A stretch of 64,000 nt of DNA from Pristiophorus japonicus (taxonomy: Eukaryota), in the NCBI RefSeq assembly GCF_044704955.1, contig NC_091983.1, positions 100,440,001 through 100,504,000 on the forward strand. The letters are read 5' to 3'. The notes beneath the pieces are model-generated. The model ran no database searches and had not been told where the DNA came from. It worked only from the letters and a program-made list of their open reading frames with translations. Every line of letters starts with the position of its first letter. Positions within the stretch are counted from its first letter, which is position 1. Positions 2,491 through 55,800 of this stretch are shown piece by piece. The translations under genes were made by a program, and so were the position numbers.

Positions 2491-3397
2491 ACGGGACCTA
2501 ATCCATTTTAGTCCTTGGTCTTTATTATAAGGCGATTGGAGAACTGTCAATGCAAAATTCACTCGTCAGTAGGCAACTCGCTGATCTGGAGATAGGAAAT
2601 TGGGTGGGTAGGGGCAGGGAAGATAAATGTGAAGGGCCTGCAGCAATAGCTTAAAAGGGAGGCGTATAAGTGTCAGGAATAAAAAGAAGCAGCACTTTAG
2701 AGCTGCAGGTATCTTGTATGCAGAACCTACAGGAACAAACATATTGAATTTGGAAGCCTTCAAGGCTCAAAATCCATAAGTGAATGCCATAAAAAAGCTA
2801 ACCATCTGTCCAGCTTTGCCTGACTGAAGCTGATGATCCCTTGAATTATTGCTGAAAATGGCCAGTACTAGACTTATACTGTCTATGTTTGGTGGGCAGG
2901 ATATTCAGGCTGGCAAAGGCGAAAATGGTGTTGGAGGTCAAAGCTGCATTATTAGCATATATGGATGAGGCTTCTGCCTGTTTCTGAGCAAAGCTGCTTG
3001 GATGGAAGTCTGCCCCAAAATCGGGACAGCCCACACAGGGAGGTGTTAGCTGCCACCAGTACTATCATGTTAATCCTACTTCAATCCCGTTTTAAGCACA
3101 CATGGGTCAGTAGCGACAAGAAATCACCCCCAGAACGTTGTAACTCTACTAACACAAATGGCAGAGTGTAAATCATTTAAAAGGGAATTCGACAAGTATT
3201 TGAATAGGAATCTTATGGAAGGATACAGTGAAAAGGCAAGCAGAATTGAAGTAACTTGTTCTAGCTGAGGAGATAGTACAGGTTAAGGGGTTGAATGGCC
3301 TCTGTTTTCTGTGATTTTGGCTTTTATGAATGAAATTATTTAAAATACTTCAGGAATATAATTATTGCAACTATATATTGGCAAGACTTAATATATA

Positions 3398-5959
3398 GGA
3401 TCAAAGATGTCTTAGAGCGGCTGCAGGGCATTCTGGAGGGGGAGGGTGAACAGCCAGTTGTCGTGGTGCAAATAGGTACCAACGATATAGGTAAAAAATG
3501 GGATGAGGTCCTACGGGCTGAATTTAGGGAGCTAGGAGTTAAATTAAAAAGTAGGACCTCAAAGGTAGTAATCTCAGGGTTGCTATAAGTGCCACGTGCT
3601 AGTCAGAGTAGAAATAGCAGGATAGTTAAGATGAATACGTGGCTTGAGGAATGGTGCAAGGAGGAGGGATTCAAATTCCTGGGACATTGGATCCGGTTCT
3701 GGGGGAGGTGGGACCAGTACAAACTGGACAGTCTGCACCTGGGCAGGACCGGAACCGATGTCTTAGGGGGAGTGTTTGCTAGTACAGTTGGGGAGGGTTT
3801 AAACTAATATGGCAGGGGGATGGGAATCTATGCAGGGAGACAGAGGGAAGTAAAATGGGGGCAAAAGCAAAAGGTAGAAAGGAGATAAGGAAAAGTGGAG
3901 GACAGAGAAATCAAAGGCAAAAATCAAAAAGGGCCACATTACAACATCATTCTAAAAGGACAAAGAGTGCTAAAAAAAACAAGCCTGAAGGCTCTCTGTC
4001 TCAATGCGAGGAGCATTCGTAACAAGGTGGATGAATTAACTGCGCAGACAGCTGGTCACAGATATGATATAATTGGGATTACGGAAACATGGCTCCAGGG
4101 TGACCAAGGCTGGGAACTCAACATCCAGGGGTATTCAATATTCAGGAAGGATAGACAGAAAGGAAAAGGAGGTGGGGTAGTATTGCTGGTTAAAGAGGAG
4201 ATTAACACAATAGTAACGAAGGACATTAGATTGGATGATGTGAAATCTGTATGGGTAGAGCTGCGGAACACCAAAGGGCAGAAAACGCTAGTGGGAGTTG
4301 TGTACAGACCACCAAACAGTAGTAATGAGGATCAAACAAGAAATTAGGGATCCACACAATAAAGATACAGCAGTTATCATGGGTGACTTTAATCTACATA
4401 TAGATTGGGCTAACCAAACTGGTAGCAATACGGTGGAGGAGGATTTCCTGGAGTGTATAAGAGATGGTTTTCTAGAACAATATGTCGAGGAACCAACTAG
4501 AGAGCTGGCCATCCTAGACTGGGTGTTGTGTAATGAGAGAGGATTAATTAGCAATCTTGTTGTGCGAGACCCCTTGGGGAAGAGTGACCATAATATGGTA
4601 GAATTTTTCATTAAGATGGAGAGTGACACAGTTAATTCAGAGACTAGGGTCCTGAACTTAAAAAAAGGTAATTTCAATGGTATGAGACGTGAATTGGCTA
4701 GGATAGACTGGCAAATGATACTTAAAGGGTTGACAGTGGATAGGCAATGGCAGACATTTAAAGATCACATGGATGAACTTCAACAATTGTACATTCCTGT
4801 CTGGCGTAAAAATAAAACGGGGAAGGTGGCTCAACCGTGGCTAACAAGGGAAATTAGGGATAGTGTTAAATCCAAGAAAGAGGCATATAAATTGGCCAGA
4901 AAAAATAGCAAACCCGAGGACTAGGAGAAATTTAGAATTCAGCAGAGGAGGACAAAGGGTTTAATTAGGAGGGGGAAAATAGAGTATGAGAGTAACCTTG
5001 CAGGGAACATAAAAACTGACTGCAAAAGCTTCTATAGATATGTGAAGAGAAAAAGATTAGTGAAGACAAAAGTAGGTCCCTTGCAGTCAGAATCAGGTGA
5101 ATTTATAATGGGGAACAAAGAAATGGCAGACCAATTGAACAAATACTTTAGTTCTGTCTTCACTAAGGAAGACACAAATAACCTTCCGGAAATACTAGGG
5201 GACCGAGGGTCTAGCGAGAAGGAGGAATTAAAGGAAATCCTTATTAGTCAGGAAATTGTGTTCGAAAAATTGATGGGATTGAAGGCCGATAAATCCCCAG
5301 GGCCTGATAGTCTGCATCCCAGAGTACTTAAGGAAGTGGCCCTAAAAATAGTGGATGCATTGGTGGTAATTTTCCAACATTCTATAGACTCTGGATCAGT
5401 TCCTATGGACTGGAGGGTAGCTAATGTAACCCCACTTTTTAAAAAAGGAGGGGAGAGAAAACAGGGAATTACAGACCGGTTAGCTTTACCTCGGTAGTGG
5501 GGAAAATGTTGGAATCAATTATTGAAGATGTAATAGCAGCGCATTTGGAAAGCAGTGACATGATCGGTCCAAGTCAGCATGGATTTATGAAAGGGAAATC
5601 ATGCTTGACAAATCTCCTAGGATTTTTTGAGGATGTAACTAGTAGATTGGACAAGGGAGAACCAGTGGATTTGGTGTATTTGGACTGTCAAAAGGCTTTA
5701 GACAAGGTCCCACACAAGAGATTAGTGTGCAAAATTAAAGCACATGGTATTGGGGGTAATGTATTAACGTGGATAGAGAACTGGTTGGCATACAGGAAGC
5801 AAAGAATAGGAATAAACAGGTCCTTTTCAGAATGGCAGGCAGTGACTAGTGCGGTACCGCAAGGTTCAGTGCTGGGACCCCAGCTATTTACAATATACAT
5901 TAATGATTTAGCCGAAGGAATTGAATGTAATATCTCCAAGTTTGCAGATGACACTAAAC
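3398..5959 (+). mobile_element. CR1 LINE, truncated at both ends: ORF1 esterase C-terminus plus ORF2 APE endonuclease and RT (decayed)
   Basis: ORF1 GTNDIG motif and end VGEGLN* (3807). ORF2 motifs LNARSIRNK, GITETW, GDFN, SDH, GPD, QHGF, PQGSVLGP, FADD, with stops and frameshifts. Confidence 0.95.
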
Positions 5960-12232: not shown

Positions 12233-12492
12233 TGTCATGTTTGTAACCTTCACAGAACTGTAACCTTTATGCAACAACACTGTATACTGTATACACCTGA
12301 GAAATGCACACCTTGACCACAGGGGGTGAAGTTGTGGGAGACACTCCTCACCTGGTCATCCAGGTATATAAAGGGAGGTCCCACGCAGGGTCATCACTTC
12401 TTGGTCCTGTGAATAAAGGTACAGGTCACAGAGTGACCTTGTCTCCAGTATGTGCCTCGTGTTGATTTGCTGTAGTGTGTAAGGACACAACA
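12233..12492 (+). repeat. 5' LTR of the Gypsy element
   Basis: TGTCATG...CACAACA with TATATAAA and AATAAA; differs from the 3' LTR by about 6 substitutions and 1 indel (hand count). Confidence 0.95.
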
Positions 12493-15400
12493 TTTGGCGA
12501 CGAGAAACGGGAATCAACGACTCAAGAGAATGGCCACTGGTAGCACGGAGGAACGGTACTGTGTTGGTGAGGACTGGGACAATTTTGTTGAGAGACTCCA
12601 GCAGAGTTTTGTCACGAAGGACTGGCTGGGAGTGACAGCGGCTGACAAGTGAAGGCCGCATCTACTGACCAGCTGTGGGCCTAAGACGTACGCGCTGATG
12701 AAAGACCTGCTCGCACCCGAGAAGCCAGTGGACAAGACCTTCGAGGAGCTCAGCAAACTGATCAGTGAGCACCTCAAACCAGCGAGTAGTATACACATGG
12801 CCTGCCACCGATTCTATACCCACCGACGTTGGGAAGGGCAGAGCATACCGGACTTCGTTGCGGACATTCGCCACTTGGCCTGCCTCTGTAAGTTCACAGA
12901 CGCTTGCAGGGGGGCGATGTTACGGGATTTCTTCATTGAGGGTATTGGTCATGCTGAGATTTTTAGGAAGCTAATTGAGACCAAGGACTTGATCTTGGAA
13001 GCAGCTTGATGGCTCAAACCTTCATGGCAGGGGAGGAGGAAACCAAGATCATATACGCATGCAACTCTGCTCCCAACATGGCGATGGGGCAGGGAGTTAA
13101 CATGGTAAACACGACTCAGAACCCCGCAGGCAGGCAAGGGCAATTCGACACCAAGCAGGCAGTAACAGACTATAGGGTGGGTCCTCAACAAAAACAATGG
13201 CAGGTTGAACAGACATTTACACCATCACAAGGGACAATACATCCCGGGATGGGACCACTGACACCCACAAACAGAGTGCTCAAGAGTAATCAAAGAGACA
13301 ATCAGAGAGGAATGCCTGGCAACAGCTCTTTTGTTCACAACAATCTCAGCTCATGCTGGAGGTGCAGGGGCAAACATGCTGAGAAGACCTGCCGGTTTCA
13401 ACAATCCATCTGCAGAAATTGTAACTTGAGTGGACATTTAGCCAGGATGTGCAGGAAGCCCGCAGTGAGGCTGGTTTACGAAGTGGATGAACTACAAGAG
13501 GGGTCTGCAAGGCAGGGGTATGCCTGGGACACAGCAATGGATGCTGAATTTCAGCGGGTCCAGGTGGCAAACATCCACAGCTCATGCACAAAAACGCCAC
13601 CTATGATGATGAGAATACTGTTAAACGGCATCCCGGTACGCATGGAGCTGGACACAGGAGCCAGCCAGTCACTTATGAGTGCTCAACAATTCGAGAAACT
13701 GTGGCCACTCAGAGCTAGCAGACCCAAACTAGAACGCATTGACACGCAACTACGGATGTACACCAAAGAGATCATCCCAGTGCTAGGCAGTGCAATGTTG
13801 GTGGTCACACATAATGGATCTCAGAACCAGCTGCCACTCTGGATTGTCCCGGGAAATGGTCCCGCGCTTTTGGGGAGGAGCTGGCTAGCCGAGATGAACT
13901 GGAAATGGGGGATGTGCACGCCATTTCATCTGTGGAGCGAAGTTCATGCTCACAGGTCCTACAAAAGTTCGAGTCATTATTTCAACCTGGCATCAAGACT
14001 TTCAAAGGCACCAAAGTAAGGATACGCATCACCCCGGACGCCACACCAGTGCACCACAAAGTCAGAGCTGTGCCGTATGTGATGTGGGAGAAAATTGAGA
14101 GTGAGTTGGACAGGTTGCTAAGAGAGGGCATAATTTCGCCCGTTGAATTCAGTGACTGGGCAAGCCCCATCATTCCTGTTCTAAAAACGGATGGCTCGGT
14201 CAGGATCTGTGGCGACTGCAAGGCCACTATCAACTGAGTGTCCCTTCAGGACCAATACCCGCTTTCGAGAGCGGAGGATCTTTTTGCCATGCTGGCAGGC
14301 GGCAAGCTGTTCACCAAGTTGGACCTCATTTCGGCCTACATGACCCAGGAACTGGCCGAAGAATCCAAGCTACTGACCACAATCACCACGCACAAGGGGC
14401 TATTTGTCTACAACAGATGTCCGTTTAGCATTCGTTCAACAGCCGCTATTTTTCAGAGGAACATGGAAAGCCTGCTCAAATCCATCCCCGGAACAATCGT
14501 ATTTCAGGACGACATCCTTATCACGGGTCGAGACACCGAGGAACACCTCCACAACCTGGAGGAGGTGCTACGCCAACTGGACCGGGTAGGCCTGCGACTA
14601 AAGAAGTCCAAGTGTGTGTTTTTGGCCCCAGAGGCCGAGTTTTTGGGCAGGAGGGTTGCTGCAGACGGGATCCGGCCCACCGAATCCAAAACGGAGGCGA
14701 TCCGTTGCGTGTCCAGGCCCGGCAACACATCGGAGTTGCGTTAATTTCTGGGACTATTGAATTATTTTGGGAACTTTCTATCGAACGTAAGTACATGGCT
14801 GGACTGCTACACGTGCTCCTGCGTAAGGGTTGCGATTGGTTTTGGGGCGACTGTCAGGAACGGGCTTTCAATCGGACGCGGAACCTGTTTTGTTCTAATA
14901 AGTTATTGACCCTGTACGACCCCTGTAAGAAATTGGTTTTGACAAGCGATGCATCATCCTATGGGGTTGGGTGCGTGTTGCAGCAGAGTAATGATGAGGG
15001 CCAACTCCAACCTGTGGCTTATGCCTCCAGGTCACTCTCCCAAGCAGAAAGGGGATATGGGATGGTTGAAAAGGAAGCACTCGCATGTGTCTATGGGGTG
15101 AAAAAGATGCACCAGTACCTTTTTGGCAGAAGGTTCGAATTAGAAACGGACTACAAGCCGTTAACATCCCTGTTGTCCGACAGCAAAGCTGTCAATGCCA
15201 ATGCGTCAGCTCGCATACAGCGATGGGCTCTCACGCTGGTTGCATATGACTACACCATACGGTACCGGCCAGGCACCGAAAATTGCGCTGACGTGCTCAG
15301 CAGGCTTCCACTGGCCACCACTGAGGGGGCAGCGGAGCAAAGCACTGAGATGGTCATGGCTGTCGATGCCTTTGACAGCGCAGGCTCCCCCATCACAGCC

Positions 15401-16744
15401 CACTAGATCAAAACCTGGACAAACAGAGATCACCTCCTATCTCTGATTAAGAAATGTGTCCTGACTGGGGATTGGGCGCCCGCACACGAAGCATGCCCTG
15501 AAGAGGTCAGACCATTTCACAGACGGATGGATGAGCTCTCCATCCAAGCCGACTGCCTACTATGGGGCAGCCGGATAGTCATGCCCCAGAGGGGTAGGGA
15601 AGCATTCATCAGGGAACTCCACAGCGAGCACCCAGGTATTGTGCTTATGAAGGCCATTGTCCAGTCACATGTATGGTGGCATGGAATTGATGCAGACCTG
15701 GAGCACTGTGTTCGCAGGTGCACGATGTGTGCCCAGCTGGGCAATGCCCCCAGGGAGGCCCCACTCAGCCCGTGGCCCTGGCCCACCAAGCCATGGTCAC
15801 GTATTCACGTAGACTACGCAGGCCCGTTCATGGGAAAAATGTTCCTCATTGTTGTTGATGGGTACTTGAAACGGATCGAGTGCATCATATTGAATTCGTG
15901 CACGACATCCACCACAGTGGAGAGTCTGCGTGCGGTCTTTGCGACCCACGGCTTGCCGGACATCCTAGTTAGCGACAACGGCCCGTGTTTCACTAGCTAT
16001 GAATTCCGGGAGATCATGTCGGGTAATGGCATCAAACATGTCAGGACAGCGCCGTTCAAGCCGACTTCCAATGGCCAGGCGGAACGTGCGGTCCAAATCA
16101 TAAAGCACAGCATGCTCCGGATTCAAGGACCCTCCCTTCAATACCGTCTATCGCGCCTCCTGCTGGCCTACAGGTCCCGACCGCACTCACTCACGGGGGT
16201 CCTGCCAGCGGAACTACTCATGAAACGCACAGTAAAAACACGGCTGTCCCTCATTCATCCAGTCTTGTCAGACATTGTTGAGGGCAAGCGCCAGTACCAA
16301 AATGAGTGCCACAACCGTAACTCAAAGGGGAGATGGATAGAAATCGATGACCCTGTATTTGTTCTTAATCACGCTGTGGGGCCCAAGTGGCTCGAGGGTA
16401 CTGTAATTGGTAAAGAAGGGAATAGGGTCATAGTGGTCAGACTAAACAATGGGCAGATATGCCGCAAGCATCTGGACCAAGTAAAAAGAAGGTTCAGCAT
16501 GGACACTGAGGAACCTGAGGAAAATCATGAGATGTTGCCCACACCACTACCAGTGAATGAGCAACAAGAACCGTCAGCAGCATGCACAGTCCCTGCGGTC
16601 AGCCCGGACAAGCCGGAATCACCACAGGTGACAAAGACGCATGCCAAGGCTCAACAACCAGAGCCCCAACTGCGGCACTCCACGAGAGAGCGCAGACCAC
16701 CTGAAAGACTCAATCTTTAATCCAAAGACGTTGGGGGGAGGTGA

Positions 16745-17003
16745 TGTCATGTTTGTAACCTTCACATAACTGTAACCTTTATGCAGCAACACTGTACACT
16801 GTATACACCTGAGAAATGCACACCTTGACCACAGGGGGTGAACTTGTGGGAGACACTCCTCACCTGGTCATCAGGTATATAAAGGGAGGTCCCACGCAGA
16901 GTCATCACTTCTTGGTCCTGTGAATAAAGGTACATGTCACAGAGTGACCTTGTCTCCAGTATGTGCCTCGTGTTGATTTGCTGTAGTGTGTAAGGACACA
17001 ACA
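16745..17003 (+). repeat. 3' LTR of the Gypsy element
   Basis: Direct repeat of 12233-12492, preceded by the PPT and followed by the TSD GTGGT. Confidence 0.95.
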
Positions 17004-31449: not shown

Positions 31450-34400
31450 TCTGCCTGCTCTCGTTTGTGGAGGGGCGGCCTCCCGGCTGGACCTCTTGCG
31501 GCAACTGGACCGAGCTATCGGGCCTCCACCCCCCCCCCGCCGCCATCTGGAGCTCTCCTTCCCCACTGATGGCCTGGTCTCCTCTCCTCCTTCAGCACAT
31601 GGTGAGTACAATGGCTGTGACCCCCCCTGCACCCCCCCCCCCATTCTCAACCCCAGTGCACCACTGGCCCCCCCAATGCCTGCCCCCAACCAAGCCTTGG
31701 ACTACCGACCATCAAGGGCGCTACCCAGCGCCGAGCCTGCGGCAAACATCTCGCCATAGGCAAATAGGCCCATATAGCAGTGCCTGATCTCCCGTCGTCT
31801 TGGACCCCCTTGCCACTGGGCCAAGATCTTGCTCAGCTTAGCCCATGTGGTAGCTGGTGTGCAACGACCACCCCACGTTAAATGAAATCACACACAGGAC
31901 TCTTCCACTCCTCTAACATGAAGTTCGGGACCTGGAACGTCAGGACCCTCATGGACAACCCCAACAGCGACAGACCGGAACGCCGCACCGCCATAGTTGC
32001 CCGGGCACTTAGGCGCTTTGATAGCGACATGGCCATCCTAAGTGAGACCCAGCGGGCAGGGGAAGGCCAGCTCAAGGAACAAGGTGGAGGTTACACCTTC
32101 TTCTGGAAAGGGAAACCAGAGGCAGAACGCTGCCTCCACAGAGTCGGCTTCGCCATCAAAGACGAGCTGGTCAACTGCGTCAAAGACTCCCCCTGCGGGG
32201 CTAATGAATGCCTCATGACGCTTCGACCCACCCTATCCTGGAACCAGTGCGCCACAGTCATCAGTGCTTATGCCCCAACACTCGATGCAACAGATGAGGC
32301 CAAAGAGGGTTTTTACTCCAACCTCGAAAAATCCCTGACCTGCGTCCCCGCGGGCAACAAACTGATCCTCCTTGGCGACTTCAACACCAGGGTCGGCAAG
32401 GACACAGACCTCTGGGGAGGCGCGATTGGCAGAGAGGGGGTAGGGAAAGCCAACTCCAGCGGTAACCTACTCCTGACAAAATGTCTAGAGCATGAACTTG
32501 TCATCACCAACACCTTGTTCCACCAGAGGGATAAATACAAGTCACTGTGGCAACACCCTCACTCCAAACACTGGCACCTGCTCGACTATGTCATCAGCCG
32601 AGTCAGGGATCGCAAGGATGTGCGCATCACCCGTGCCATGACAGGAACTGACGACTGCTGGACAGACCACCGCCTAATCCGATCCATCATTGACATCAAC
32701 ATAGCCCCAAAGTGAAGGGGACAGCAGAAGCAGTGTCGCAAAAAAGTCAATGCTGGGGCACTTAAGGACCCGGCTAAGAGAGCCCTTTACAGTCAGCATC
32801 TCACAGCTAACCTGGCATGCCTTGATGATCCCGAGACACAGAATGCCCAAAGCGCTTGGTTTGCCCTCCAGGCCTCCATAACCAGTGCCTGAAAAGAGAT
32901 GCTCAGTCACTCAACCAGGAAACATCAGGACTGGTTTGACGAGAATGATCAGGAGATTCAAGAGCTAATAGATTGCAAGCACAGGGCATTTCTGAGCCTT
33001 AAATAGCAACCCAACTTGGGAGCAGCAAAGCAGCATTACAGACAGCTAAAGGCTAAGGTCCAACAAAAAACCCGGGACCTAAAGAACAGGTGGTGAATGG
33101 AGAAAGCACAGAAGATACAGCAGCTGGCCGACAGCCATGATGTGCGAGGATTCTTCATCGCAGTCAAGACCACCTACGGTCCAAACACCCAAGGCCCCAT
33201 CCCGCTGCTGGCCAAGAACAGGGAAACACTCATCAAGGACACCGAGGCAGTCAGGGCCCGCTGGAAGGAGCACCTCGAAGATATCCTCAACTCGAGTGTT
33301 CTCGACTCCATTCCGCAGCATGCTACCCGCCATCACCTCAGTGAGACCCCAATACTGCATGAGGTAGAAAAAGCCATAAGACAGCTAAAAAAACAAGACT
33401 ACGGGAGTGGATGGAATCCCTGCTGAGGCACTGAAGTATGGCGGAGAGGGACTGCTGGTGTGAATACACGACTTCATCTCTCTGATCTGGAGGGAGGAGA
33501 GCATGCCGGGGGATCTTAGAGATGCAGTGATCGTGACTATCTTTAAAAAAGGGGCAAGTCCAACTGTGGCAACTACAGAGGAATCTCCCTGCTATCAGCC
33601 ACTGGGAAAGTCATCGCTAGAGTCCTCCTCAACCATCTTCTCCCCGTGGCCGAGGAGCTCCTCCCAGAGTCGCAGTGTGGATTTCGTCCCCTCCGGGACA
33701 CAACGGACATGATTTTTGCAGCACAACAGCTGCAGGAAAAATGCAGGGAACAGCGCCAGTCCTTATACATGGCCTTCTTCGACCTTACAAAGGCCTTTGA
33801 CACTGTCAAGCGCGAGGATCTATGGAGCGTCCTCCTCCATTTCGCCCCCAAAAGTACATCACCATCCTCCGCCTGCTCCACGACGACATGCAGGCCGTGA
33901 TCCTTACCAATGGATCCATCACAGACCCAATCCACGTCCGGACCGGGGTCAAGCAGGGCTGCATCATCACCCCAACCTTCTTCTCAATCTTCCTCGCTGC
34001 CATGCTCCACCTCACAGTTGATAAGCTCCCCACTGGAGTGGAACTAAACTACAGAACCAGTGGGAAGCTGTTCAACCTGCGCCGCCACCAGACCAGGTCC
34101 AAGACCACTCCAACCTCTGTCGTTGAGCTACAGTACGCGGACAATGCCTGCATCTGTGCACACACAGAGGCTGAACTCCAGGACATAGTCGACGTATTTA
34201 CCAAGGCATAAGAAAGCATGGGCCTTGTGCTAAGCATCAGTAAGACAAAGATCCTCCACGAGCCTGTCCTCGCCGCATAGCACTGCCCCCCAGACATCAA
34301 GATCCACGGCGTGGCCTTGGAAACGTGGACCACTTCCCTTATCTCGGGAGCCTCTTATCAACAAGAGCAGGCATCGGCGACGAGATCCAACACTGCCTCC

Positions 34401-44157: not shown

Positions 44158-47100
44158 GTCCTGGCCATTGGAAGCCGGCTTGAACGGCGCTGTCCTGATG
44201 TGTTTGATACCATTACCCGACATAAACTCCTGGAATTCATAGCTAGTAAAGCACAGGCCATTGTTGCTAACTAGGATGTCTGGCAAGCCGTGGGTCACAA
44301 AGACCGCACACAGACTCTCCACAGTGGTGGATGTCGTGCACAAATTCAATATGATGCACTCGATTCATTTTGAGTATGCATCGACAACAATCAGGAACAT
44401 TTTTCCCATGAACGGGCCCGCGTAGTCTACGTGAATACGTGACCATGGCCTGGTGGGCCAGGGCCACGGGCTGAGGGGGGCCACCCTGGGGGCATTTCCC
44501 AGCTGAGCACACGTCGTGCACCTGCGAACCCAGTGTTCCAGATCTGAGTCAATTCCCGGCCACCATACATGTGACCGGGCAATAGCCTTCATTAGCTTGA
44601 TGCCTGGGTGCTCGCTGTGGAGTTCCCTGATGAATGCTTACCTTCCTTTCTGGGGCATGACTACCCGGCTGCTCCATAGCAGGCAGTCGGCTTGGATGGA
44701 GAGCTTGTCCATTCGTCTGTGAAACGGCCTGACCTCCTCGGGGCACGCTCTGTGTGCGGGCGCCCAATCCCCAGTCAGGACACATTTCTTTATCAGCGAT
44801 CGGAGGGTATCTATGTTGGTCCAGATTTTGATCTGGTGGGCTATGATGGGGGAGCCTGCGGTGTTGAAAGCCTCAATGGCCATGACCACCTCCGCGCTTT
44901 GCTCCAACGCCCCCTCAGTGGTCGCAGTGGGAGCCTGCTGAGCGCGTCAGCGCAATTTTCGGTGCCTGGCAAGTGCCGTATGGTGTAGTCATACGCAGCC
45001 AGCGTGAGGGCCCACCGCTGTATGCGAGCTGATGCGTTGGCATTGACAGCCTTGCTGTCGGACAACAGGGATGTTAACGGCTTGTGGTCCGTTTCTAACT
45101 CGAACCTTCTGCTGAAAAGGTACTGGTACATCTTTTTCACCACATAGACACATGCGAGTGCTTCCTTTTCAACCATCCCATATCCCTGTTCTGCCTGGGA
45201 GAGCGACCTGGAGACATAAGCCACAGGTTGGAGTTGGCCCTCATCATTACTCTGCTGCAACACGCACCCAACCCCGTAGGATGATGCATCACGTGTTAAA
45301 ACCAGTTTCTTATAGGGGTTGTACAGAGTCAACAGATTGTTAGAACAAAGCAGATTCCGCACCTGATTGAAAACCCGTTCTTGACAGTCCCCCCAAAACC
45401 ATTCACAATCCTTACGCAGCAGCATGTGCAATGGCTCCAATAATGTGCTTAAGTTTGGCAGAAAGTTCCCGAAGTAGTTCAATAGTCCCAGAAATGACAG
45501 CAACTCCGTTTTTGATTCAGTGGGCCGGATCCCGTCTGCGGCAACCCTCCTGCTCAAAAACTCGACCTCTAGGGTCAAAAACACACACTTGGACATCTTT
45601 AGTCGCAAGCCTACTCGGTCCATTCGGTGTAGCACCTCCTCCAGGTTGTGGAGGTGTACCTCGGTGTCTCGACCCGTGATTAGGATGTCATCTTGGAATA
45701 CGATTGTTCGAGGGATGGATTTAAGCAAGCTTTCCATGTTCCTCTGGAAGATAGCGGCCACTGAACGAATGCCAAATGGACACCTATTGTAAACGAATAG
45801 CCCCTTGTGCGTGGTGATGGTGGTCAGAAGCTTGGATTCTTCAGCCAGTTCCTGAGTCATGTCGGCTGAAGTGAGGTCCAACTTGGTGAACAGCTTGCCA
45901 CCTGCCAGTGTGGCAAAAAGATTCTCCACTCTCGGAAGCGGGTATTTGTCCTGTAGTGACACTCGGTTGATGGTGGCCTTGTAGTCGCCACAAATCCTGA
46001 CCTAGCCATCCACTTTAAGGACAGAAACGATGGGGCTTGCCCAGTCACTGAATTCAACAGGCGAAATTATGCCCTCTCTTAGCAGCCTGTCCAACTCACT
46101 CTCAATTTTCTCACGCATCACAAACGGCACAGCTCTGACTTTGTGGTGCACTGGTCTGGCATCCGGGGTGATGTGTATCACTACTTTGGTGTTCTTAAAA
46201 GTCCCGACCTCTGGTTGAAAAAGTGGCTCGAATTTCTGTAGGACCTGTGAGCATGAACTTTGCTCCACAGACGAAATGGCGTGCACATCCCCCCATTTCC
46301 AGTTCATCTCGGCTAACCAGCTCCTCCCCAAGAGCGCGGGACCATTCCCCGGGACAATCCAGAGTGGCAGCCGGTTCTCCGATCCATTGTGTGTGACCAC
46401 CAATTTTGCACTGCCTAGTACTGGGATGATCTCTCTGGTGTACGTCCGTAACTGCGTGTCAATGCGTTCCAGTTTGGGCCTGTTAGCTTTGAGTGGCCAT
46501 AGTTTTTCAAACTGTTGGGCACTCATAAGTGACTGGCTGGCTCCTGTGTCCAGCTCCATGCATACCGGGATGCCATTTAATAGAACTTTCATCATCATAG
46601 GTGGCGTTTTCGTATACAAGCTGTGGACGTCTGCCACATGAACCCACTGGACTTCAGCATCCATAGCTTTGCCCCAAGCATCACCCTGCCTTGCAGACCC
46701 TTTGTCTGGTTCCTCTGCTTCATAAACTAGCCTCGTTACGGGCTTTCTGCACATTCTTGCCAGATGTCCACTGAAGTTACAGTTTCTGCAGACAAATTGC
46801 TGAAAGCTACACGTTTTCGCAGCATGTCTGCCACCGCACCTCCAGCATGAGCTGAGATTGTTGTGAACAAAGGAACTGTTAACAGGCATTCCTCTCTGAT
46901 TGTCTCTTTGATTACTCCTGAGCACTCTGTTGCTGAGTGTCAATGGTCCCATCCCGGGACGCATTGTTCCTTGTGATGGCGTGAATTGCCGATCCCCCTG
47001 CCATTGTCTCTGTTGCTGGCCCACCCTAGAGTCTGTTGCTGCCTGGGTGGTATCGAATTGCCCTTGCCTGCCTGCGGGGTTCTGAATCTCATTTACAATG

Positions 47101-47970
47101 TTAACTCCCTGGTCGATCGCCACGTTGGAACCAGGGCTGCGTGCATAAATTATCTTGGTCTCCTCTTCCCCTGCCATGAAGGTCTGAGCTATCAATGTTG
47201 CCCTTTCCAAAGTCAAGAACTCGGTCTCAATAAGCTTCGTGAAAATCCCGGCATGACCAATGCCCTCAATGAAGAAATCCCTTAACATCTCCCCGCTGCA
47301 GGCATCTGTGAACTTACAAGGCTGGCTAAACGCCAAAGGTCCGCAACGAAGTCCGATATGCTTTGTCCCTCCCGACGCCGGTGTGTGTAGAACCGGTGCC
47401 GGGCCATGTATATACTGCTCACCGGTTTGAGGTGCTCACCGATCAGAGTGCTGAGCTCTTCAAAAGACTCATCCGCCGACTTCTCAGGTGTGAGCAGGTC
47501 TTTCATCAGCGCATATGTCTTGGATCCACAACTGGTCAGTAGATGCGCCCTCCACTTGCCAGCGCTTCCTCTCCCAGCCAGTCCTTCATGACAAAGCTTT
47601 GCTGGAGCCTCTCAACGAAATCGTCCCAGTCCTCACCAACACAGTACCGTTCATCTGTGCTACCGGTGGCCATCCTCGTGGGTTGTTGATTCCCGTTTCT
47701 CGTCGCCAAATGTGGTGTCCTTACACCTTACTATAGAATCACATGAGGCATTTACTGCAGACAAAGTCACTACATGACCTGAACCTTTATTCCCAGGACC
47801 AAGAAGTGCTAACCCTGCGTGGGACCTCCCTTTATATACCTGGATGACCAAGTGAGGAGTGTCTCCCACAAGTTCACCCCCTGTGGTCAAGGTGTGCATT
47901 ACTCAGGTGTATACAGTGTACAGTGTTGTTACATAAAGGTTACAGTAATGTGAAGGTTACAAACATGACA
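44158..47970 (-). mobile_element. Gypsy (Mag-like) element of the same family as 12233-17003, 3'-truncated within integrase; 5' LTR at 47711-47970
   Basis: LTR TGTCATG...CACCACA, PBS TGGCGACGAG, gag-protease-RT ORF 46002..47336, RT-RNase H ORF 44841..45962, integrase ending at FKPASNGQ. Confidence 0.95.
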
Positions 47971-48763
47971 AGGAGGACCTGGCTGCAGTGGCGCAAACCT
48001 TTCAAAGATCCCAGTAGATCACAAAACGTTACTGCAAAGCTACACTCAGTCTCATCCTGCTGTGCCTTTCATCATATCCCCATCACTCTGCCTTCCCTAC
48101 CCTACTCTGGCACATCCTTACTCACACCAACTTACCTTGAAACTCCACCCATCCCTCTCTATCTATGTTATCACATCCCCATCTCACTAGCCACCCCTCA
48201 TACTCACCCTCATCCTAGTGCAATCATACCAACTAACAACACACACGGTTGGGTGTTTTATGCAATGTTCATGTAAAGTTTCTGCTAATGTAGTGTCAAA
48301 CATTGAAAGCTTTATTTTCAACTTTGCCTTCGTAGACAGATTTGTGTGCACCTTTGGAAGTGGCTTAGTGAGTTCCAGTGAATGGTGAGACATAACGGTA
48401 CCCCCCCGCAATGGTGAAAGGAATGGCTTGGGCATTGTAGGGATGTTTTATGGTGTTGGAGTGGGGTGGTGCCAACCTGGTGCATCATGTGGTAGCCAGG
48501 GTGTACAGTGTCAAGTGAAGTAAATCTGGCCATGGTGAGGCCATTCCTGGCCTCCCAGGCAGCAATGTGCTCAGGTACTGATGCCCTACGTCTTGTGCAG
48601 CATCAGTTAATTGCGGAGAAGGTTGGTGTTCTTGTTGGTGCTGCTGGTGTGCCTGGTGATGTTGGTTTCAGCAGATCGTGGTGGGATTCTGAGGACCAAT
48701 GTGAGAGAGTTTCAAGGGCATTTATGCTGATGGAATAGATGGCAGGTGAAGTAGAGATGAAAG

Positions 48764-51700
48764 TAGAGTTGAGGACTTTAAACTAAATAGTGGAGGGAAG
48801 GGTTAAGGTGAAGGGAAATTTAAAAAGTCAAAGAGCAAGGAGAAGGCAATAAAACATGATTGCGTTGGGGGAAATGATAACCAGAGTGTGACAAGAAGGG
48901 ACAAAATGTATAAAAATAAGAGTGTATCAGAAAGTGGGGTCAAAGCAGCGAAAAATAGTAAAAAGTCAAAATTAAAAGCTCTTTATCTGAATGCATGCAG
49001 CATTCATAACAAGATAGATGAGTTGATGGAACAAATAGATATGACTGGGTATGATCTGATAGCCATTACAGAGATGTGGTTGCAAGGTGACCAAGGCTTG
49101 GAACTGAATATTCGGCGGTATTTGACAATTCAGAAGGATAGATAGAAAGGAAAAGGAGGTGGGGTAGCTCCAGTAATAAAGGATGAGATCAGGGCAGTAG
49201 TGAGAAATGATATTGGCTTAGAAGATCAAGATGTAGAATCAGTTTAGGTGGAAATAAGAAATAATAAGGGGAAGAAGTCACTGGTGGGCGTTGTCTATAG
49301 GCCCCCTAACAATAACTACACCATTGGACAGAATATAAATCAAGAAATAATGGAGGCTTTTAAGAAAGGTACGGCAATAATCATGGCCGATTTTAATTTT
49401 CATATTGATTGGACAACTCAAATTGGCCAAAGTAGCCTTGAGAAAGAGTTCATAGGGTGTATCCGGGATGGTTTTCTTGAACAGTGCATTGTGGAACCAA
49501 CCAGGGAGCAGGCTATCTTAGATCTGGTACTGCGTAATGAAACAGGGTTAATAAATGAGCTCATAGTAAAGGATCCTCTAGGAAAGAGTGATCATAACAT
49601 GGTTGAATTTCAAATTCAGTGGGAGGGTGATAAAGTTGGGTTTCAAACCAGTGTCCTGATCTTAAATAAAGGCAATTACAAAGGTATGAAGGCAGAGTTG
49701 GCTAAAGTGGACTGGGAAAATAGATTAAAGTGTAAGACGGTTGATGAGCAGTGGCAGACATTTAAGGAGATATTTCATAACTTTCAACAAAAATATATTC
49801 CAGTGAGAAGGAAAGACTTTAAGAGAAGGGAGAACCATCCGTGGCCAACTAAGGAAGTGAAGGATGGTATCAAATTGAAAACAATGGCATACAATATTAA
49901 GAGGATTAGTGGGAAGCGAGAGGATTGGGAAATTTTTAAAAACTAGCAAAGGACAACTAAAAAAATAATAAAGATAGAAGATAGTTTATGAGAGTAAACT
50001 AGCAAGAAATATAAAAACAAACAGTAAGAACTTCTACAGGTATATAAAAAGAAAAAGAGTAGCTAAAGTAAACATTGGTCCCTTGGAGGATGAGACTGGG
50101 GAATTAATAATGAGAAACAGGGAAATGGCAGCGACTTTGAACAAATATTTTGTATCGGTCTTCACGGCAGAAAGCACTAAAAACATCCAAATAATAGATA
50201 ATCAAGAGGCTATAGGGAGGGGGGAACTTAATACAATTGCTATCAGTAAACAAAAAGTATTTGGTAAAATAATGGGACTAAAGGTGGACAAGTCCACTGG
50301 ACCTGATGGCCTGCATCCTAGGGTCTGAAAAAAAGTAGCTGTAGAGATCGTGGATGCATTGATTGCAATCTACCAAAATTCCCTGGAGTCTGGAGAGATC
50401 ACAGTGGATTGGAAAACTGCAAATGTAATGCATTTTAAAAAGAAGGGAGACAAAAAGCAGGAAACTATAGACCAGTTAGCCTAACATCTGGCATTGGGAA
50501 AATGCTGGAGTCCATTATTAAGGAAGCAGTAGCAGGATATTTGGAAAATCATAATGCAGTCAAGCAGAGTCAGCATGGTTTTATGAAAGGGAAATCCTGT
50601 TTCACAAATTTGCTGTTGTTCTTTGAGGATGTAATGAGCATGGTGGCTAAGGGGGAACCAGTGGATGTGATGTATTTGGATTTCCAGAAGACATTCGATA
50701 AGGTGCCACATAAAAGGTTACTGCATAAGATATGAGCTCATGGGGTTGGGGGTAATATATTTGCATGGATAGAGGATTAGCTAACTAACAGAAAACAGAG
50801 AATCGGGATAAATGGGTCCTTTTTTTGTTGGCAAACGGTAACTAGTGGGGTGCCACAGGGATCGGTGCTGGGGCCTCAACTATTTACAACTATATTAATG
50901 ACTTGGATGAAGGGACCGAGTGTAATGTAGACAAGTTTGCTGATGATGCAAAGATGGGTGGGAAAGCAAGTTGTGAGGAGGACACAAAGAATCTGCAAAA
51001 GGATATAGGCAGGCTAAGTGAATGGACAAATATTTGGCAGATGGAGTATAATGTGGGAAAGTGTAAGGTTATCCACTTTGGCAGGAAAAATAAAAATGCA
51101 AATTATTATTTAAATGGAGAGAGATTACAAAATGCTGCAGTACAGAGGGACCTGAGGGTCCTTGTGCCTGAGATGAAGGGGTTGTCACATGAAGAAAGGT
51201 TGAGTAAGTTGGGCCTATAATTGGAGTTTAGAAGACTTAGAGGTGAACTTATTGAAACATATAAGATTCTGTAGGGGCTTGACAGGGTAGATGCAGAGAG
51301 GATGCTTCCCCTTGTGGGGGAATCTAGAACTAGGGGGCATAGTTTCAGAATAAGGGGTTGCCCATTTAAAACGGAAATGAGGAGGAATTTCTTCTCTCAG
51401 AGGGTCGTGAATCTTTGGAATTCTCTACCCCAGAGAGCTGTGGAGGCTAGGTCATTGAATGTATTTAGGGTGGAGATAGACAGATTTTTGAGCAATAACG
51501 GAGTCAAGGGTTATGGGGAGCGGGCAGGGAAGTGGAGTTGAGGTCAGGATCAGATCAGCCGTGATCTTATTGAATGACGGAGCAGGCTCAAGGGGCCAAA
51601 TGGCCTACTCCTGCTCCTATTTATTTTCTTATGAAACACAAAAAATTAGTATGCAAGTACAGCACGTAATCAGGCAGGCACCTGAAATGTTGGCCTTTAT

Positions 51701-52859: not shown

Positions 52860-55800
52860 GAATCATAGAATCATGGAAGTTTACAGCACAGAAGGCGGCC
52901 ATTTTGGCCCATCGTGTCCGTGCCGGCCAACAAGAGGCTATCCAGCCTAATCCCCCAATGTCCCAGGGGGAGTGTTTGCTAGTGCTGTTGGGGAGGAGTT
53001 AAACTAATATGGCAGGGGGATGGGAACCAATACAGGGAGACAGAGGGAAACAAAAAGGAGACAAAAGCAAAAGACAGAAAGGAGATGAGGAAAAGTGGAG
53101 GGCAGAGAAACCCAAGAAAAAGAACAAAAAGGGCCACTTTACAGCAAAATTCTAAAAGGACAAAGGGTGTTAAAAAAACAAGCCTGAAGGCTTTGTGTCT
53201 TAATGCAAGGAGTATCCGTAATAAGGTGGTTGAATTAACTGTGCAAATAGATATTAACAAATATGATGTGATTGGGATTACGGAGACGTGGCTCCAGGAT
53301 GATCAGAGCTGGGAACTCAACATCCAGGGGTATTCAACATTCAGGAAAGATAGAATAAAAGGAAAAGGAGGTGGGGTAGCATTGCTGGTTAAAGAGGAGA
53401 TTAATGCAATAGTTAGGAAAGACATTAGCTTGGATGATGTGGAATCTATATGGGTAGAGCTGCAGAACACCAAAGGGCAAAAAACGTTAGTGGGAGTTGT
53501 GTACAGACCTCCAAACAGTAGTAGTGATGTTGGGGAGGGCATCAAACAGGAAATTAGGGGTGCATGCAATAAAGGTGCAGCAGGTATAATGGGTGACTTT
53601 AATATGCACATAGATTGGGCTAGCCAAACTGGAAGCAATACGGTGGAGGAGGATTTCCTAGAATGCATAAGTGATGGTTTTCTAGACCAATATGTTGAGG
53701 AACCAACTAGGGGGGAGGCCCTCTTAGACTGGGTGTTGTGTAATGAGAGAGGATTAATTAGCAATCTTGTTGTGCGAGGCCTCTTGGGGAAGAGTGACCA
53801 TAATATGGTAGAATTCTGCATTAGGATGGAGAATGAAACAGTTAATTCAGAGACCATGGTCCAGAACTTAAAGAAGGCTAACTTTGAAGGTATGAGGCGT
53901 GAATTGTCTAGGATAGATTGGCGAATGATACTTAAGAAGGGGTTGACTGTGGATGGGCAATGGCAGACATTTAGAGACCGCATGGATAAACTACAACAAT
54001 TGTACATTCCTGTCTGGCGTAAAAATAAAAAAGGGAAGGTGGCTCAACCGTGGCTATCAAGGGAAATCAGGGATAGTATTAAATCCAAGGAAGTGGCATA
54101 CAAATTGGCCAGAAATAGCAGCGAACCCGGGGACTGGGAGAAATTTAGAACTCAGCAGAGGAGGACAAAGGGTTTGATTAGGGCAGGGAAAATGGAGTAC
54201 GAGAAGAAGCTTGCAGGGAACATTAAGACGGATTGCAAAAGTTTCAATAGATATGTAAAGAGAAAAAGGTTAGTAAAGACAAACATAAGTCCCCTGCAGT
54301 CAGAATCAGGGGAAGTCATAACAGGGAACAAAGAAATGGCAGAACAATTGAACAAGTACTTTGGTTCGGTATTCACTAAGGAGGACACAAACAACCTTCC
54401 GGATATAAAAGGGGTCAGAGGGTCTAGTAAGGAGGAGGAACTGAGGGAAATCCTTATTAGTCAGAAAATTGTGTTGGGGAAATTGATGGGATTGAAGGCT
54501 GATAAATCCCCAGGGCCTGATGGACTGCATCCCAGAGTACTTAAGGAGGTGGCCTTGGAAATAGCGGATGCATTGACAGTCATTTTCCAACATTCCATTG
54601 ACTCTGGATCAGTTCCTATTGAGTGGAGGGTAGCCAATGTAAACCCACTTTTTAAAAAAGGAGGGAGAGAGAAAACAGGGAATTATAGACCGGTCAGCCT
54701 GACCTCAGTAGTGGGTAAAATGATGGAATCAGTTATTAAGGATGTCATAGCAGCCCATTTGGAAAGAGGTAACATGATAGGTCCAAGTCAGCATGGATTT
54801 GTGAAAGGGAAATCATGCTTGACAAATCTTCTGGAATTTTTTGAGGATGTTTCCAGTAGAGTGGACAAGGGAGAACCAGTTGATGTGGTATATTTGGACT
54901 TTCAGAAGGCTTTCGACAAGGTCCCACACAGAGTTTAATGTGCAAAGTTAAAGCACATGGGATTGGGGGTAGTGTGCTGACATGGATTGAGAACTGGTTG
55001 TCAGACAGGAAGCAAAGAGTAGGAGTAAATGGGGACTTTTCAGAATGGCAGGCAATGACTACTGGGGTACCGCAAGGTTCTGTGCTGGGGCCCCAGCTGT
55101 TTACATTGTACATTAATGATTTAGACGAGGGGATTAAATGTAGTATCTCCAAATTTGCAGATGACACTAAGTTGGGTGGCAGTGTGAGCTGCGAGGAGGA
55201 TGCTATGAGGCTGCAGAGCGACTTGGATAGGTTAGGTGAGTGGGCAAATGCATGGCAGATGAAGTATAGTGTGGATAAATGTGAGGTTATCCACTTTGGT
55301 GGTAAAAACAGAGACAGATTATTATCTGAATGGTGACAGATTAGGAAAAGGGGAGGTGCAACGAGACCTAGGTGTCATGGTACATCAGTCATTGAAGGTT
55401 GGCATGCAGGTACAGCAGGCGGTTAAGAAAGCAAATGGCATGTTGGCCTTCATAGCGAGGGGATTTGAGTACAGGGACAGGGAGGTGTTGCTACAGTTGT
55501 ACAGGTCCTTGGTGAGGCCACACCTGGAGTATTGTGTACAGTTTTGGTCTCCTAACTTGAGGAAGGACATTCTTGCTATTGAGGGAGTGCAGCGAAGGTT
55601 CACCACACTGATTCCCGGGATGGTGGGACTGACCTATCAAGAAAGACTGGATCAACTGGGCTTGTATTCACTGGAGTTCAGAAGAATGATTGGGCACCTC
55701 ATAGAAATGTTTAAAATTCTGACGGGTTTAGACAGGTTAGATGCAGGAAGCATGTTCCCAATGTTGGGGAAGTCCAAAACCAGGGGTCACAGTCTAAGGA

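Follow-up and report, generated by a model that had tools for sequence, protein, structure and literature searches.

How is the second open reading frame (ORF) of a CR1 retrotransposon translated? The question is raised by a 64,000-nucleotide (nt) stretch of Pristiophorus japonicus DNA (contig NC_091983.1, positions 100,440,001–100,504,000 of the forward strand), referred to below as the window and numbered from its first letter, in which three copies (A, B and C) of a CR1-type long interspersed nuclear element (LINE) contain an ORF1/ORF2 junction. By its domains and sequence, the element is an esterase-ORF1 CR1 LINE. Translation of ORF2 from a two-gene LINE RNA is a long-standing open question, and the worked cases, L1 and SART1, use reinitiation. 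We propose, on comparative grounds, that programmed −1 frameshifting at the junction of esterase CR1 elements probably produces an ORF1–ORF2 fusion protein. In most vertebrates, CR1-group elements are the retrotransposons that dominate, and in sharks and rays they account for 22–34% of the genome (PMC13343379). The features of the three copies are as follows.

3397..3807, plus strand: 3′ part of copy A ORF1, an SGNH/GDSL esterase ending in ...GEGLN-stop, 5′-truncated and with an internal stop at 3586–3588 (tblastn 81% to P0001; PF13472)
3798..3807, plus strand: copy A heptamer U_UUA_AAC (3798–3804) and ORF1 stop UAA
3815..3847, plus strand: copy A G-rich tract, of which the first two runs (3815–3824) are the conserved part
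3798..3979, plus strand: copy A basic linker in the ORF2 (−1) frame, stop-free; an extra A in 3972–3979 breaks the frame before the endonuclease
48777..48786, plus strand: copy B (second subfamily) U_UUA_AAC and UAA at the 5′ truncation point
48777..49973, plus strand: copy B ORF2 (−1) frame, with a linker containing a stop at 48804–48806, first ATG at 48906 and a decayed endonuclease region
52957..53007, plus strand: last 16 codons of copy C ORF1 (...GEELN) and stop, 5′-truncated at ~52955
52998..53007, plus strand: copy C heptamer G_UUA_AAC (52998–53004) and UAA
53015..53047, plus strand: copy C G-rich tract G5-N2-G3-N10-G3-N7-G3, of which G5-N2-G3 (53015–53024) is the widely conserved part
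52998..54938, plus strand: copy C ORF2 in the −1 frame, with a basic linker of ~60 codons, an APE endonuclease and the start of the reverse transcriptase; first ATG at 53085; a premature stop ends the ORF

An earlier note on this DNA, made from the sequence alone, placed T_TTA_AAC_TAA at 3798–3807 (copy A) and 48777–48786 (copy B) and G_TTA_AAC_TAA at 52998–53007 (copy C), with the ORF2 frame at −1 relative to the ORF1 heptamer. Each 10-mer is found where the note put it and the frame relation holds in three of three copies. The note's account of the downstream frames is equally accurate: that of copy C is open from 52983 to 54938 (first ATG at 53085, from which 617 amino acids are counted), that of copy B has a single stop at 48804–48806, before the endonuclease, and that of copy A has no stops up to an A8 run at 3972–3979, which is 7 nt long in contigs of the family (loose ends at 3973/3976: 82 and 25 in run X2, 36 in run X9). 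The zero frame of each copy contains an X_XXY_YYZ heptamer, if GUU is tolerated in the P site as it is in equine arteritis virus (PMC3542737), and the −1 frame downstream is open in copy C and has one lesion each in A and B.

Two points need correcting. The note had ORF1 ending at the junction in all three copies, but homology to ORF1 covers 136 codons in copy A (3397–3804) and only the last 16 in copy C (52957–53004), and none was detected upstream of copy B, which is 5′-truncated about at the heptamer. Nor can the three copies be taken as independent evidence. Copies A and C are 87% identical over 2.2 kb and form one subfamily, whereas copy B is 67–68% identical to both, so the window holds two lineages rather than three. 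Only copy A (the 3.8-kb copy) retains the ORF1 esterase (PF13472, E 2e-9; profile match to 4C1B), and PF03372 and PF00078 on 52998–54935 identify an APE endonuclease followed by a reverse transcriptase in ORF2. The copy junction closely resembles, by eye, the published ScyCan_CR1-1a consensus, and among named relatives of its ORF1 the closest belong to sharks. TTAAACTAR occurs four times in the window against 0.82 expected, three of these at the CR1 junctions; the fourth, TTAAACTAA (minus strand, 63756), lies outside any CR1 junction and is taken as chance. We also note that copy B is truncated at the heptamer (48770–48790) and copy C ~43 nt before it (52955), and that the published consensus ScyCan_CR1-1b begins exactly at the heptamer. 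The heptamer region is possibly a 5′ truncation hot spot, or the coincidence may be chance.

The heptamer and stop recur across vertebrate CR1 families. In the first 400 nt of each consensus sequence in Supplementary Table 2 of PMC13343379, TTTAAACTA has 23 matches, 16 of which are, by eye, CR1 junctions with T_TTA_AAC and a stop at the apparent end of ORF1; one other, from a row with the label Crack, has a comparable end, and six lie elsewhere. Judged by row prefixes, the 16 junctions come from alligator (2), crocodile (3), bowfin, bullfrog and coelacanth and, on the cartilaginous side, from elephant shark, stingray, sawfish, catshark (2) and dogfish (3). A heptamer-independent search of the same sequences through the upstream esterase motif gave 17 matches. 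Nine of these are CR1 ORF1 ends, eight with the heptamer and stop and one that ends before the junction. Other heptamers in this supplement yielded no new junction in the 21 of 135 places examined. Contigs of four sequencing runs (four organisms), aligned to 3680–4060 of the window, have no indel at the heptamer at a level of at least 5%, and of their 93 variant rows the 40 examined include none at 3799–3807. Position 3798 is G in 42% of the depth of the best-matching run and in <1% in the other three, indicating that G_UUA_AAC is a real subfamily form.

The ORF1 proteins point in the same direction. All nine close ORF1 proteins end in LN. A more distant set comprises 150 ORF1 representatives (50% identity), and the C-terminus can be evaluated in 87 of them (the last catalytic motif and a tail of 20–45 residues). 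Fifty-one of these tails end in LN (39), GN (10) or KN (2), against a background of 0.8% per position, and 53 end in any heptamer-type dipeptide; among its named members are a frog, an eel, sturgeon, anole and turtles. As residues, L, G and K have little in common, but their codons UUA, GGA and AAA are those that occupy the P site in X_XXA_AAC signals; U_UUA_AAC, G_GGA_AAC and A_AAA_AAC are among the most shift-prone heptamers (PMC5009743). Tail length varies (25–39 residues for LN and 24–28 for GN), and wherever L-N was seen in DNA its codon pair is TTA AAC, one of 12 possible. Because the heptamer switches among shift-prone forms while the encoded amino acids change, selection of the site at the RNA level is likely. 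Further ORF1 groups (P0115, P0128, P0129, P0145, P0148, P0149; P0048, P0082, P0100, P0137 and others) either keep K-N in one position, with tails of variable form after it, or have F-F, F-L or G-F near the end, which at the protein level suggests A_AAA_AAC and U-type heptamers. P0005, a shark-type CR1 ORF1 deposited as a Pseudomonas aeruginosa SGNH hydrolase, is likely a case of assembly contamination.

Seven metagenome loci (L001–L007) and a family of frog proteins allow the junction to be followed into distant families. In L001, the codons for Q-G-N form G_GGA_AAC, and a single codon separates this from the stop. L002 and L003 belong to one family; their homologous T-L-N is encoded by U_UUA_AAC, with the stop eight codons later, and a 12-bp hairpin that begins 10 nt after the heptamer (−17.2 kcal/mol, z −4.2, with none of 200 shuffles as good). 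The −1 frame of L002 has no stop for 374 codons, which take it into the endonuclease, and its first Met is codon 54, at the first strand of that domain. Considered as a unit, L002 2235–2290 and L003 1909–1964 resemble a textbook −1 cassette: U_UUA_AAC, a 10-nt spacer and a 12-bp hairpin containing the ORF1 stop. In the frogs, only two back-translations satisfy both the end of ORF1 in P0062 and the peptide read in the ORF2 frame of P0213, P0215 and P0216: G_UUA_AAC_UAG and G_UUA_AAU_UAG, the proteins having been paired as one family by inference from this fit. The frog −1 frame, open like that of L002, runs 51 codons to the endonuclease motif, with no Met for 49 codons in two of three models. 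A search for naturally fused ORF1–ORF2 proteins gave six matches, and the four frog models examined (P0213–P0216) omit the C-terminal half of the esterase. We reject them as natural fusions, as they appear to splice from mid-esterase across the junction into the ORF2-frame linker, so that an artefact of annotation conceals the change of frame. Locus searches in viral contigs, metagenomes (query P0001) and prokaryote genomes found nothing.

On this comparative evidence we consider the site a real, deeply conserved recoding-type junction. From its sequence, frame and conservation we infer the following course of events. Most ribosomes would terminate ORF1 after ...L-N, while for a minority the Leu and Asn tRNAs would re-pair one base back at the heptamer by tandem slippage. 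The trans-frame product would read ...E-L-N-L-I-W-Q-G-D-G... and continue through a basic linker of ~50–70 codons into the APE and reverse transcriptase domains. A small share of the esterase ORF1p would thereby be joined to endonuclease and reverse transcriptase, in the manner of Gag and Pol. In the distant L002/L003 family, the plain 12-bp hairpin would take the place of the G-rich motif found downstream of the vertebrate heptamer.

The vertebrate stimulator is the least certain part of this explanation. A stem-loop or pseudoknot ~5–9 nt downstream, as expected of a canonical −1 signal, was not detected in the window copies by folding that leaves pseudoknots out of the model, a hairpin being found only in L002/L003, at 10 nt; for this reason we do not class the vertebrate junction as a canonical −1 signal. 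Rfam has no matches in the window. The earlier note had named four G-runs as a possible quadruplex stimulator, and four runs of at least three G, with loops of 2, 10 and 7 nt, do begin 10 nt after the heptamer in copies A (3815–3847) and C (53015–53047). The pattern is the sole such site within these two elements and falls in the top 0.5–0.7% of G4Hunter-type windows, and RNA quadruplexes have stimulated −1 shifting of up to 7% in reporters (PMC3919603). A three-tier quadruplex of all four runs is nonetheless an improbable form of the frameshifting explanation. It is missing from copy B, and none of the 15 evaluable consensus junctions has, by eye, four G3 runs with loops of 12 nt or less. The contigs of three other organisms diverge from the window at 3824–3826, right after the second run. 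ViennaRNA favors a two-tier quadruplex from the first runs only (starting at +6 in both A and C, −5.8 kcal/mol). In the reporter study, shifting was best with a spacer of 6–8 nt and fell with longer loops, so that the 10-nt spacer and 19 loop nt of the CR1 site are poor values, and four short-looped G3 tracts at a conserved spacing of 6–8 nt are not what the junction presents. We reject the four-run quadruplex as a general stimulator on its absence from copy B, its absence from all 15 consensus junctions and the divergence after run 2. Two close G-runs of at least three, starting 2–10 nt after the heptamer, are by contrast kept, by eye, in 12 of the 15 consensus junctions. The conserved unit is thus G5-N1-2-G3, since two runs are widely kept, four are not, and the contigs diverge beyond the second. 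This motif, ~6–10 nt downstream, is our best candidate stimulator and could act as a protein-binding site or as a small two-tier quadruplex, the latter as modeled; it could also partly reflect a G-D/E-G peptide. By analogy with pea enation mosaic virus, where a nearby stop matters for shifting (PMC5009743), slow termination at the adjacent stop may aid slippage. The stop-adjacent arrangement emphasized in the earlier note is common, but stop adjacency as an essential feature is rejected, as the stop lies eight codons later in L002/L003 and one codon later in L001.

The main rival to frameshifting is termination–reinitiation, in which ORF2 would restart at an overlapping UAAUG or near-cognate codon (as in SART1 or influenza B) or at a downstream AUG such as that at 53085 (as in L1), releasing a free ORF2p. 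SART1 is reported to work in this way, and the same has been proposed for L1 (PMC5972666). Most vertebrate families have the stop immediately after the heptamer. UAAUG, with its AUG in the ORF2 frame, occurs in three of the 16 consensus junctions, and the ORF2 relative P0206 is annotated from the UAAUG position. The window copies overlap their stops with UAAUA or UAAAU, which contain no AUG, although copies A and C have the near-cognate AUA there. All three carry an in-frame ATG ahead of the endonuclease. These ATGs stand at 3855 in A, 48906 in B and 53085 in C, positions that are not shared, and 13 of the 16 consensus junctions lack an overlapping AUG. L002 and two of three frog models offer no Met before the first strand of the endonuclease, and the L002/L003 stop lies eight codons past the heptamer, inside the hairpin. 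Reinitiation also leaves the conserved heptamer and its swap to G_GGA_AAC unexplained, and we judge it unlikely. The two mechanisms may coexist in some shark families: ScyCan_CR1-1a, SquAca_CR1-17a and SquAca_CR1-6c have the heptamer and a UAAUG stop–start together, and could produce both a fusion and a free ORF2p. A different possibility is that constraint on the protein keeps a C-terminal L-N and the heptamer merely results from it, with ORF2 expressed by another route such as internal initiation or a spliced RNA. Of the 39 LN tails, 27 do have L-N at one set distance from the catalytic motif. Against this, L, G and K interchange before N while tail length varies, and a single codon pair of the 12 possible is used. 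The solved ZfL2-1 esterase has no L-N in an alignment that reaches residue 169 of 171, and tails with the ZfL2-1 DGLHP motif mostly lack the dipeptide, making protein constraint very unlikely. Finally, polymerase slippage on the TTTAAA run could restore the frame in RNA, and would fit the frame relation but nothing else. The runs are only 3 nt long, the sequencing runs contain no such indel at the site at 5% or above, and a retroelement would inherit such indels as fused copies; we give this explanation almost no credence.

The in-frame ATGs, the UAAUG junctions and the annotation of P0206 weigh against programmed frameshifting, and several other observations must be set beside them. Seven local folds at the junctions of the window copies do not improve on shuffled sequence (z between −1.0 and +0.6, with pseudoknots outside the model), and the best long-range duplexes of the G-rich motif, at −15 to −19 kcal/mol, equal those of shuffles. 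Between copies A and C, the 58 linker codons differ by 17 non-synonymous and 6 synonymous changes, indicating protein-level drift. Two of the distant loci, L004 and L007, are weak matches with neither a heptamer nor a −1 ORF2, and the sequences of L005 and L006 end before the junction. The consensus sequences are gap-compressed, so that heptamer and stop could be scored but frame could not, and the first set was picked by the heptamer–stop motif itself from rows of 400 nt. Among the ORF1 representatives, 63 of 150 are not evaluable, 34 of the 87 evaluable tails end without a heptamer-type dipeptide, and the representatives are related, so that counts are not independent and P-values overstate independence. 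Frameshifting remains our preferred explanation. The fusion proposed in the earlier note gains comparative support from a heptamer kept across vertebrates with shift-prone variants only, a kept −1 frame and two distant families without an early AUG, but loses its quadruplex component.

The conserved −1 site presents a 10-nt target, which makes ORF2 translation in a dominant vertebrate LINE directly testable. The predicted ORF1p–ORF2p fusion would alter models of CR1 particle assembly and cis-preference and bears on the engineering of CR1-type elements as insertion tools; it would also imply errors in ORF2 annotations that begin at an AUG inside the frame and in gene models with a splice over the junction. 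It is possible, though doubtful, that esterase CR1 elements have used a Gag–Pol strategy since before the split of sharks and bony vertebrates. The vertebrate signal would then be of a structure-free type, its stop-adjacent heptamer stimulated by a short G-rich motif acting as a two-tier quadruplex or as the binding site of a trans-acting protein, either ORF1p itself or a host protein that recognizes G-runs. If so, chromosomes would offer in this junction a naturally occurring case of −1 frameshifting under the stimulus of a quadruplex or a protein, and the reverse transcriptase would be tethered to the membrane-binding ORF1p.

The window contains other repeats. A Ty3/gypsy-type long terminal repeat retrotransposon occupies 12233–17003 on the plus strand, with 260-bp terminal repeats that are 97% identical (12233–12492 and 16745–17003) and with protease, reverse transcriptase, RNase H and integrase in broken frames; a second, 86% identical copy lies at ~44160–47971 on the minus strand. 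A G-rich 16-bp tandem array of ~138 copies (86% matches) spans 304–2490, and an endonuclease-domain ORF of another LINE family, with no match in the CR1 ORF2 tblastn, lies at 31882–32715.

Our literature search found no statement or test of frameshifting at the CR1 junction, in a coverage that does not extend to the early CR1 papers (1997, chicken and turtle; Kapitonov and Jurka 2003). 'CR1' is absent from the first 300,000 characters of a 2016 review of frameshifting (PMC5009743), and 'frameshift' from the 2026 CR1 survey (PMC13343379). According to the earlier note, frameshifting had previously been proposed for CR1. Close known systems include CR1 subgroup 7 with its type IV ORF1 and ZfL2-1, whose ORF1p structure is PDB 4C1B (E 1e-43); these have the same esterase ORF1 and APE/reverse transcriptase ORF2 (PMC4120745, PMC3905857), but ZfL2-1-like tails, unlike those of the window CR1, lack the terminal heptamer-type dipeptide. 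SART1, with UAAUG coupling, and L1, with reinitiation, face the same bicistronic ORF2 problem, and UAAUG is also present in some shark CR1 families. Unlike the frameshifting proposed here, these systems release ORF2p on its own and do not depend on a slippery heptamer (PMC5972666). The Dictyostelium elements TRE5-A and TRE3-A, also APE-type non-LTR retrotransposons, are said in a review legend to need a −1 frameshift for ORF2, as we propose for CR1 (PMC5911963), but belong to a different LINE lineage in which no esterase is noted. For Paramecium elements, +1 shifting or readthrough has been suggested.

Other parallels are viral. The coronavirus IBV (U_UUA_AAC), equine arteritis virus and the retroviral gag-pro/pol junctions combine X_XXY_YYZ heptamers with a −1 polymerase ORF after an abundant first protein, as in CR1 (PMC3542737, PMC5009743), and the downstream hairpin of viral −1 signals is shared by L002/L003. 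Unlike these signals, the CR1 heptamer resides in a non-LTR retrotransposon, and in vertebrates the stop adjoins it and no stem is predicted 5–9 nt downstream. A precedent for shifting in which RNA structure plays no part is the protein-stimulated −1/−2 site in nsp2 of the porcine virus PRRSV, where a short linear motif lies 11 nt downstream, a placement comparable to the ~6–10 nt of the CR1 G-rich motif. The PRRSV motif is C-rich and is bound by PCBP and nsp1beta (PMC7939443); its likeness to the CR1 motif is one of analogy only.

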